Below are positions 19,841-20,126 of a stretch of 64,000 nt of DNA, one piece after another. Position 1 is the first letter of the stretch, and each line of letters starts with the position of its first letter. Made by a program: the position numbers and the translations under genes. The notes under the pieces were generated by a model. The model ran no database searches and was not told the DNA's origin. It saw only the letters and a program-made list of their open reading frames with translations. The DNA comes from an uncultured Clostridia bacterium (GTDB lineage: Bacteria > Bacillota > Clostridia > TANB77 > CAG-508). Location of the stretch: contig CALXJX010000003.1 of NCBI GenBank assembly GCA_944388735.1, forward strand, positions 9,111 to 73,110, in the 5' to 3' direction.

Positions 19841-20126
19841 CTATAACTGACCAAGCCGAGAAGATTACGAAAGAAAGCACTTTTGCCTCATTGACCTCTG
19901 AATTCTTGTTACTATTCACAGCTTAAAATTAGTACTTAAAATGTTGATATATTAATATTTCATAAATTTTTCAGCCCCTCTCGTACCTCGAGTACCGTGA
20001 ACATCCCTCAATAAATCATATAACAAATTCTAAAATATTTCCAATCACATTCAAAATTTATTCAATATTAATATATCAACATTTTTTAGCTTATTATAGA
20101 GGCTGTGAATAGTAACGAATTCTTAC
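19841..20126 (-). mobile_element. Family-A half copy (A4) interrupted by B1
   Basis: ctataactgaccaagccgagaagattacgaaagaaagcacttttgcctcattgacctctgaattctt[B1+TSD]ac. Only one arm and part of the core are present. Confidence 0.6.
19908..20116. mobile_element. Family-B palindromic MITE-like element, copy B1, with a perfect 8-bp TSD
   Basis: The TIRs are gttactattcacagc and gctgtgaatagtaac. It is flanked by GAATTCTT at 19900-19907 and 20117-20124. It lacks the left half of the inner stem that B2 has. Confidence 0.85.

Follow-up and report, generated by a model that had tools for sequence, protein, structure and literature searches.

We found that B1, a 209-bp family-B MITE, lies inside the tip of a family-A element, and that both families trace to ISBst12-like elements of the IS66 family. 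They are probably moved by separate transposases, and A tips are a hot spot for B insertion. We put the probability of this reading as a whole at about 0.68. The window is the whole 64,000-nt stretch that was analysed (G000:C3:9111-73110), and G000 is a 1.44-Mb bin of 58 contigs with 28% G+C.

The original prediction placed B1 between the two copies of a perfect duplication within a family-A terminus, and both parts of this claim were borne out. The 8-bp GAATTCTT is identical on the two sides of B1, with P ~6e-5 for a chance 8/8 match of the flanks at the local base composition. The left end of B1 is GTTACTATTCACAGC, and its right end is the exact reverse complement of the left. A family-A profile built from 39 copies matches the minus strand immediately beside B1 (C3:28946-29017 in contig numbering) over A positions 3-71. 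Since the AC on the far side supplies A positions 2-1, taking out B1 with one copy of the duplicate rebuilds an A tip with two substitutions (...CATTGACCTCTGAATTCTTAC); the joined flanks read ...CCTCTGAATTCTTAC compared with ...CCTCTGAACTGTTAC in the A consensus. Thus, B1 sits two bases inside the A tip and has duplicated tip positions 3-10 (8 bp). The features of the locus are as follows:

19836-19907, minus strand: truncated family-A element, A positions 71 to 3 (left arm and start of the core, ...AAGCCGAGAAGATT...), nhmmer E = 7e-10
19900-19907, no strand: target-site duplication copy 1, GAATTCTT, A-tip positions 10 to 3, same as 20117-20124
19908-20116, plus strand: B1, 209-bp family-B MITE, tips GTTACTATTCACAGC ... 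GCTGTGAATAGTAAC, from BLAST and nhmmer against full-length B
20117-20124, no strand: target-site duplication copy 2, GAATTCTT, from reading of the sequence
20125-20126, minus strand: outermost two bases of the interrupted A tip (AC; GT on the minus strand), from the joined flanks

The host of B1 is a 71-nt half arm of family A, not a whole element, and it either had lost the other 140 bp before the insertion or lost them later. Because the genome is a 58-contig metagenome bin with repeats collapsed at contig ends, an assembly artefact or a chance match could be proposed for the nesting. However, the locus lies deep within a 75-kb contig, the duplication of B1 is perfect (8/8 by chance, 6e-5), and the same layout recurs at independent loci with differing flanks, which makes such an origin extremely improbable. 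Taken together, these results support B1 as a genuine insertion into an A tip.

B1 itself is an internal-deletion derivative, about 54 nt short of the 263-bp form. It folds into one long DNA hairpin (z = -10) in which the arms pair over about 50 nt and the 15-nt tips are exact reverse complements. The next ORF, which may be mfd, starts at 20349, about 230 bp downstream of B1. Two 80-nt blocks at 20265-20344 and 51440-51519 (78% identical) carry paired units TTGCC-N-GTCCC-N-TTGGCAAAA, each directly upstream of one gene; they look operator-like or like a small repeat family, and are distinct from A and B.

A genome-wide census of both families, proposed earlier as the check on their shared ends, was run with BLAST and nhmmer across the whole G000 assembly. 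Family A has about 40 full copies (215 bp) and many partial copies, and family B has 8 full-length copies (263 bp) besides several forms with internal deletions and short ones of 84-176 bp. Together they amount to about 190 tips in 1.44 Mb. The consensus is GTAACARTTCAGAGGTCAATGG for 150 A tips and GTTACTATTCACAGC for 41 B tips, each B tip being confirmed by B-specific inner sequence. The other copies do show the predicted shared end pattern, GTWACWRTTCASAGS, and 10-11 of the first 15 bases agree between the two consensus tips. Positions 3, 6, 12 and 15 separate A from B almost without exception among the 191 tips, although there is some circularity in these frequencies, as tips were gathered by approximate match to each consensus. 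The predicted 8-bp duplication was likewise found for both families. When the flanks of paired tips were compared at each length from 4 to 12, only 8 was prominent: 9 of 49 A pairs were perfect and 21 of 49 had at most one mismatch, and for B the counts were 5 of 13 and 6 of 13. At other lengths the A counts were 0-3, except at 4 nt, the shortest, where they (3 perfect and 8) equal the chance expectation. The members of both families elsewhere in the window are:

8741-8955, plus strand: reference full-length family-A element, 215 bp, with a perfect GAATGTCG duplication at 8733-8740 and 8956-8963
37702-37916, plus strand: second full family-A copy, 95% identical to the reference at 8741-8955, flanks CACAAAGT / CACAAATT
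5627-5845, 30445-30651 and 54865-55071: further family-A copies
12027-12373: family-A variant with an insert, 347 bp
45796-46059, plus strand: full-length family-B element, flanks GTAAAAGA / GTAAAATA (7/8), hairpin fold z = -12.7

The insert of the 347-bp variant (12183-12310) is a module of roughly 130 nt that forms a hairpin of its own (CATTGTTTGTGCGCCAATTTTACT/AGTAAAATTGTGTGCAATAATG) and was found inside four A copies; its sites also include the G000 contig ends C6, C11, C20 and C46, and C9, C31 and C36. At the contig ends C6 and C36 the module gives way, at ...CATTGTTCGTG, to an unassembled repeat whose end reads GATAGCATAAATTTTTAGTAGG or GTTAGTATAAACTTTTAGTAGGG, and these joins suggest a site-specific IS that targets the module. 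Contigs C54-C58 have high GC and telomere-like or simple repeats (ACCCACGCATTACCGCAT...) in this 28% GC bin, and are likely contamination.

The expectation that transposition was recent is supported by a twin of B1 at G000:C28:13589-13797, which is 209 bp long and 100% identical, has unrelated flanks and carries its own 7-bp duplicate. The identical twin shows that the deletion derivative was mobilised after it arose, and that the deleted 54 nt of the core are dispensable for movement. Identity among full B copies is 96-97%, and the best A pair reaches 99%. Since each family has inserted into the other, A and B were active over the same period. No pre-insertion allele of the B1 site was recovered, the flanking genes lying on different contigs in 18 of 18 matching relatives from the genus.

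The GTAA-type tips, together with the 8-bp duplication, gave the IS66 family as a lead. Autonomous relatives were found in sister genomes; they are 1.6-2.0 kb long, with one ORF of 480-550 aa that encodes a DDE_Tnp_IS66 transposase (61-89 bits against PF03050, cut-off 23). For one of them, L040, the score against NF033517 is 187 bits (cut-off 180). The IS tips of these relatives begin GT[TA]AC. Copies with 8-bp duplications occur in the A-type, clade II and clade III lineages, and most clades have such copies; the two intact B-type IS copies checked, L040 and L053, have no target duplication. In the published ISDge4, a member of the ISBst12 group, the terminal inverted repeats are GTGACTACTCAGCA / GTAACTGCTCAGCA, the direct repeat is 8 bp and there is a single ORF (PMC12898284). 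Position 3 in the ISBst12 group can be A, T or G, even between both ends of one element (ISDge4, L012). Both A and B are short and non-coding, with terminal inverted repeats, a fixed 8-bp duplication and tips that match an autonomous IS; the partner transposase was not found in the same genome. Judged by their sequences, A and B are MITEs from the single-ORF, ISBst12-like branch of the IS66 family, and this common origin would explain why their tips follow one pattern and why their duplications are equally long. A literature search found no paper on MITEs from ISBst12-type IS, which does not prove that there is none.

The autonomous partner that the original prediction called for was absent from this assembly, but candidate IS66 relatives with matching tips are present in the sister genomes. 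Searches of G000 for an IS66-family transposase, whole or fragment, gave no PF03050 and no tblastn match in an assembly that is 93% complete and would lack IS contigs shorter than 2.6 kb. At the contig ends of G000, there was no A or B tip reading outwards. Between A or B tips there is no transposase; long-range tip pairs were rejected as the partner, as they enclose ordinary genes. Contig-end repeats were rejected as well, and consist of IS3-like ends, a likely 5′ end of a group II intron and two unknown IS ends. Since no such enzyme is encoded in the assembly, the partner was either lost recently or lies on unbinned DNA, and we name the partners only by analogy with other genomes.

It had further been proposed that one transposase mobilises both families, and the comparative data argue against this part. 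In a tree built from 23 such transposases, the tip sequence tracks the clade. IS ends that read GTTACTATTCACAG are found only on one transposase clade, here called B-type, with tips GTTACTATTCAC[AG]G at 7 of 7 loci (L040, L053, L079, L076, L049, L083 and the tail of L096); three of the seven come from the same genus as this genome. The tip of the B MITEs is identical to those of L040, L079 and L049 over 15-16 nt. The A-type clade has tips of GTTACAGTTCAG followed by TAAG, GTGG or AGG (L096, L074, L094, L095, L080, L081 and L092), and the A-type tip of L096, GTTACAGTTCAGAGG(T), matches A at 14 of 15 positions. Protein identity between the transposases of the two clades is 21-28%. On contig L096 (Ga0153999_1010497), an A-type IS and a B-type IS end abut at 2101-2140 with no spacer (...CTGTAAC/GTTACTATTCACGG...), the B-type assignment being made from the transposase C-terminus, which is 65% identical to that of L053. 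This tip-to-tip arrangement indicates that the two lineages coexist, each with its own ends. The A-type transposase of L096 is split at a run of C (GCCCCCCCGGG).

A single transposase that recognises both tip types, and moves A and B, tolerating that they consistently differ at four of the first 15 bases, would fit the 10-11 of 15 tip positions in common, the 8-bp duplications in both families, their overlapping periods of activity and their insertion into each other. It would also fit the variation at position 3 within the ISBst12 group, even within one element (ISDge4, L012), and the B hot spot in A tips described below, which suggests that the enzyme of B binds A tips. However, in every autonomous copy examined the tip type follows the clade, the clades are only 21-28% identical, and the two IS types that share one contig have different tips, each its own. 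Among the 191 tips, hardly any are intermediate at positions 3, 6, 12 and 15. A search for mobile units with one A and one B tip yielded six candidate pairs, with a best flank identity of 5/8 and none with a duplication. The target hot spot of B is not shared by A. In addition, 39 of the 60 genomes sampled from the genus contain B-type elements, whereas A-tipped elements were found in this genome only; the other genomes of the genus have only an A-like core, with different arms. We therefore regard a single shared enzyme as unlikely. From the tips and transposases in other genomes, we infer which enzyme moves which family: two related partner transposases are probably to be favoured over one, and descent from two sister IS lineages within the ISBst12-like group accounts better for what A and B have in common. 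We assign a partner to A with less certainty than to B, because position 3 is A in 97% of A MITEs and T in the A-type IS, including the best match, and because L036, of another clade in the same genus (GTAACTATTCAGAC), has A at this position. One chimera was noted at G000:C33:6163-6471, in which the left 84 nt of A switch, at the shared octamer CTTAAAAT, to B sequence starting with position 29; no target duplication was found, and the chimera probably arose by recombination rather than as a mobile hybrid.

The two cores had been described as sharing landmarks in the same order. Direct alignment of the A core with the B core is not significant (z = 1.8), but an element of another genus (G024) combines B-type arms with an A-like loop and aligns significantly with both cores (z = 8.4 and 6.1), so the cores are homologous by transitivity. 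The core is more conserved than the arms, and genera whose arms are quite different have it in common. The A-type core (TCGGCT ... GAGCCTCTCG ... CACATTCG) also occurs with many unrelated arms, which pair with themselves in each copy and have ends other than GTAAC. This genome has 63 A-type cores, and those of other genera are 70-75% identical in the core, with nothing shared in the arms. Cores with other arms were seen at 31128-31338 in the window, at G000 C4:31269, in G454, G443, G444, G429 and G435, and, in reverse-strand coordinates, at C5:36896, C7:45457, C17:6256, C21:6254 and C30:4845.

Since the core is common to A, to B by way of G024, and to many elements with unrelated self-complementary arms in several genera, one could suppose that it (TCGGCT ... 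hairpin with loop GAGCCTCTCG-N-GCTTCCTCA ... CACATTCG) is a functional module rather than inert MITE filler, for which IS66-type arms are interchangeable vehicles. The core might then act as a structured RNA, or as a hairpin of single-stranded DNA to which a protein binds. We consider this supposition a long shot. At gathering thresholds, Rfam gave no match in the window. Among the matches at loose thresholds, plant miRNA-precursor models were rejected as hairpin look-alikes. TwoAYGGAY RNA (RF01731) was also rejected; its match to the B core at 45865-45988 on the minus strand scored 36.1 bits against a gathering threshold of 43 and rests on a long AU-rich stem, and a TwoAYGGAY search of the whole genome gave no significant match.

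B insertions were found to cluster at one place in A tips. GTAA occurs exactly 10 nt outside the B tip at 7 of 41 B ends (binomial P = 2e-9; neighbouring offsets 0-2), and these seven cases rest on a 10-mer, not a rebuilt element, as they keep only the 10-nt outer A piece and the rest of A is missing. This outer piece consists of GT and the 8-bp duplication, the outer part of an interrupted A tip. The complementary inner junction (...CTGAAYTGTT/B) was found at 3 more B ends, which brings the total to 10 of 41 B ends at one fixed position within A tips. With about 170 A tips in 1.44 Mb and about 28 B elements, fewer than 0.01 such hits are expected by chance; the corresponding counts for A ends are 2/150 and 0/150 (Fisher P = 4e-6). 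Three B copies lie beside long A arms and have their own duplications, namely B1, C22:8864 and C41:10037; the duplicated tip positions are 3-10 for B1 and C22 (only 7 bp at C22) and 6-13 for C41. In the other direction, at least four insertions of A into B were found, at varied positions (C12:177, C25:14797, C1:25371 and C6:31961). This difference in target choice could reflect timing, with few A tips available when A spread.

The loss of the A remainder in the seven 10-mer cases is attributed to the evident instability of long palindromes, as many half elements exist. The same cases could instead be read as belonging to a longer B terminus or as a general target motif, GTAA-N6, with a chance resemblance to an A tip, rather than as remains of A, given that all seven have GTAANNNNNN alone with no A interior beyond B, and that four of the 10-mers are identical, (G)TAACAGTT(C). 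However, B1, C22:8864 and C41:10037 have a long A arm on one side and duplications directly at GTTAC...GTAAC, which shows that B ends at GTTAC. Moreover, B copies outside A (C18, C5, C42 and 45796 in the window) do not have GTAA at this offset beyond chance, and GTAACAGTTC is the commonest A tip. These observations make an origin of the 10-mers other than from A quite improbable, and we retain the preferred reading of B insertion at a fixed site in A tips. In two of the autonomous relatives, the IS ends have further features: L023 has a 30-nt tandem duplication of its left IS tip (988-1047), and in L022 an A-like tip (GTTACAGTTCAGGTGCC) begins 18 nt inside the tip of another IS (177-215). Both may be further signs that the ends of this IS group attract insertions. 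As to why A tips attract B, we infer, by analogy with IS30, that a B-type transposition complex may recognise the similar A tip as its preferred target.

The course of events would then be as follows. A and B would have shrunk from single-ORF IS66-family elements with GT[TA]AC tips (the ISBst12-like group), and would most likely be served in trans by two different but related transposases: for B, an enzyme of the clade with IS ends GTTACTATTCACAG, and for A, one of the clade with IS ends GTTACAGTTCAG(AGG). B1, as a non-autonomous DDE transposon, would have entered the tip of an older A MITE that was already decaying, by cut-and-paste or by copying, with duplication of 8 bp of that tip. The B complex would insert preferentially two bases inside A-type tips, so that the duplicated 8 bp are positions 3-10, and its transposase would bind the similar A tip as a target in an IS30-like manner. 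The cognate IS of B, the separation of the two partners and the targeting of tips by B are new here.

These results assign two repeat families that are very abundant in an uncultured Clostridia genome to a defined group of transposons, which should aid annotation of such genomes, as such repeats break assemblies and occupy promoter regions. To our knowledge, IS66-family transposition is poorly characterised, and A and B offer a concrete case for how far tips drift before related IS66-family transposases stop sharing substrates. If the fixed-position landing of B in A tips, as read from genomic footprints, is true, it would be a case of one mobile element disabling a competitor.

Compared with the ISBst12 group, A and B have the same tips, GT[A/T/G]AC followed by ...TCAG.., and the same 8-bp duplication. 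Unlike these IS elements, A (215 bp) and B (263 bp) are non-coding and form one long hairpin, have a conserved central core that is absent from the IS elements, and lack a partner IS in their own assembly. Bacterial MITEs that are mobilised in trans include Correia/NEMIS, RUP, MITEAba12 and bcr1-like repeats. Like these, A and B are short and non-coding, with terminal inverted repeats, a duplication of fixed length and many copies, and they also have internal-deletion derivatives and nested copies; they differ in a core that is more conserved than the arms and crosses genera, and in an unusually high load. For IS30 and some members of the IS3 and IS21 families, inverted-repeat targeting is known, in which the transposase directs insertion next to the end of a resident IS. 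B insertions similarly pile up at a fixed offset from the tip of a resident element. In contrast to IS30-type targeting, the target of B is the tip of another, related family rather than its own end, insertion is 2 bp inside the tip and duplicates 8 bp, and the mechanism suggested for B is drawn only from the footprints left in the genome.
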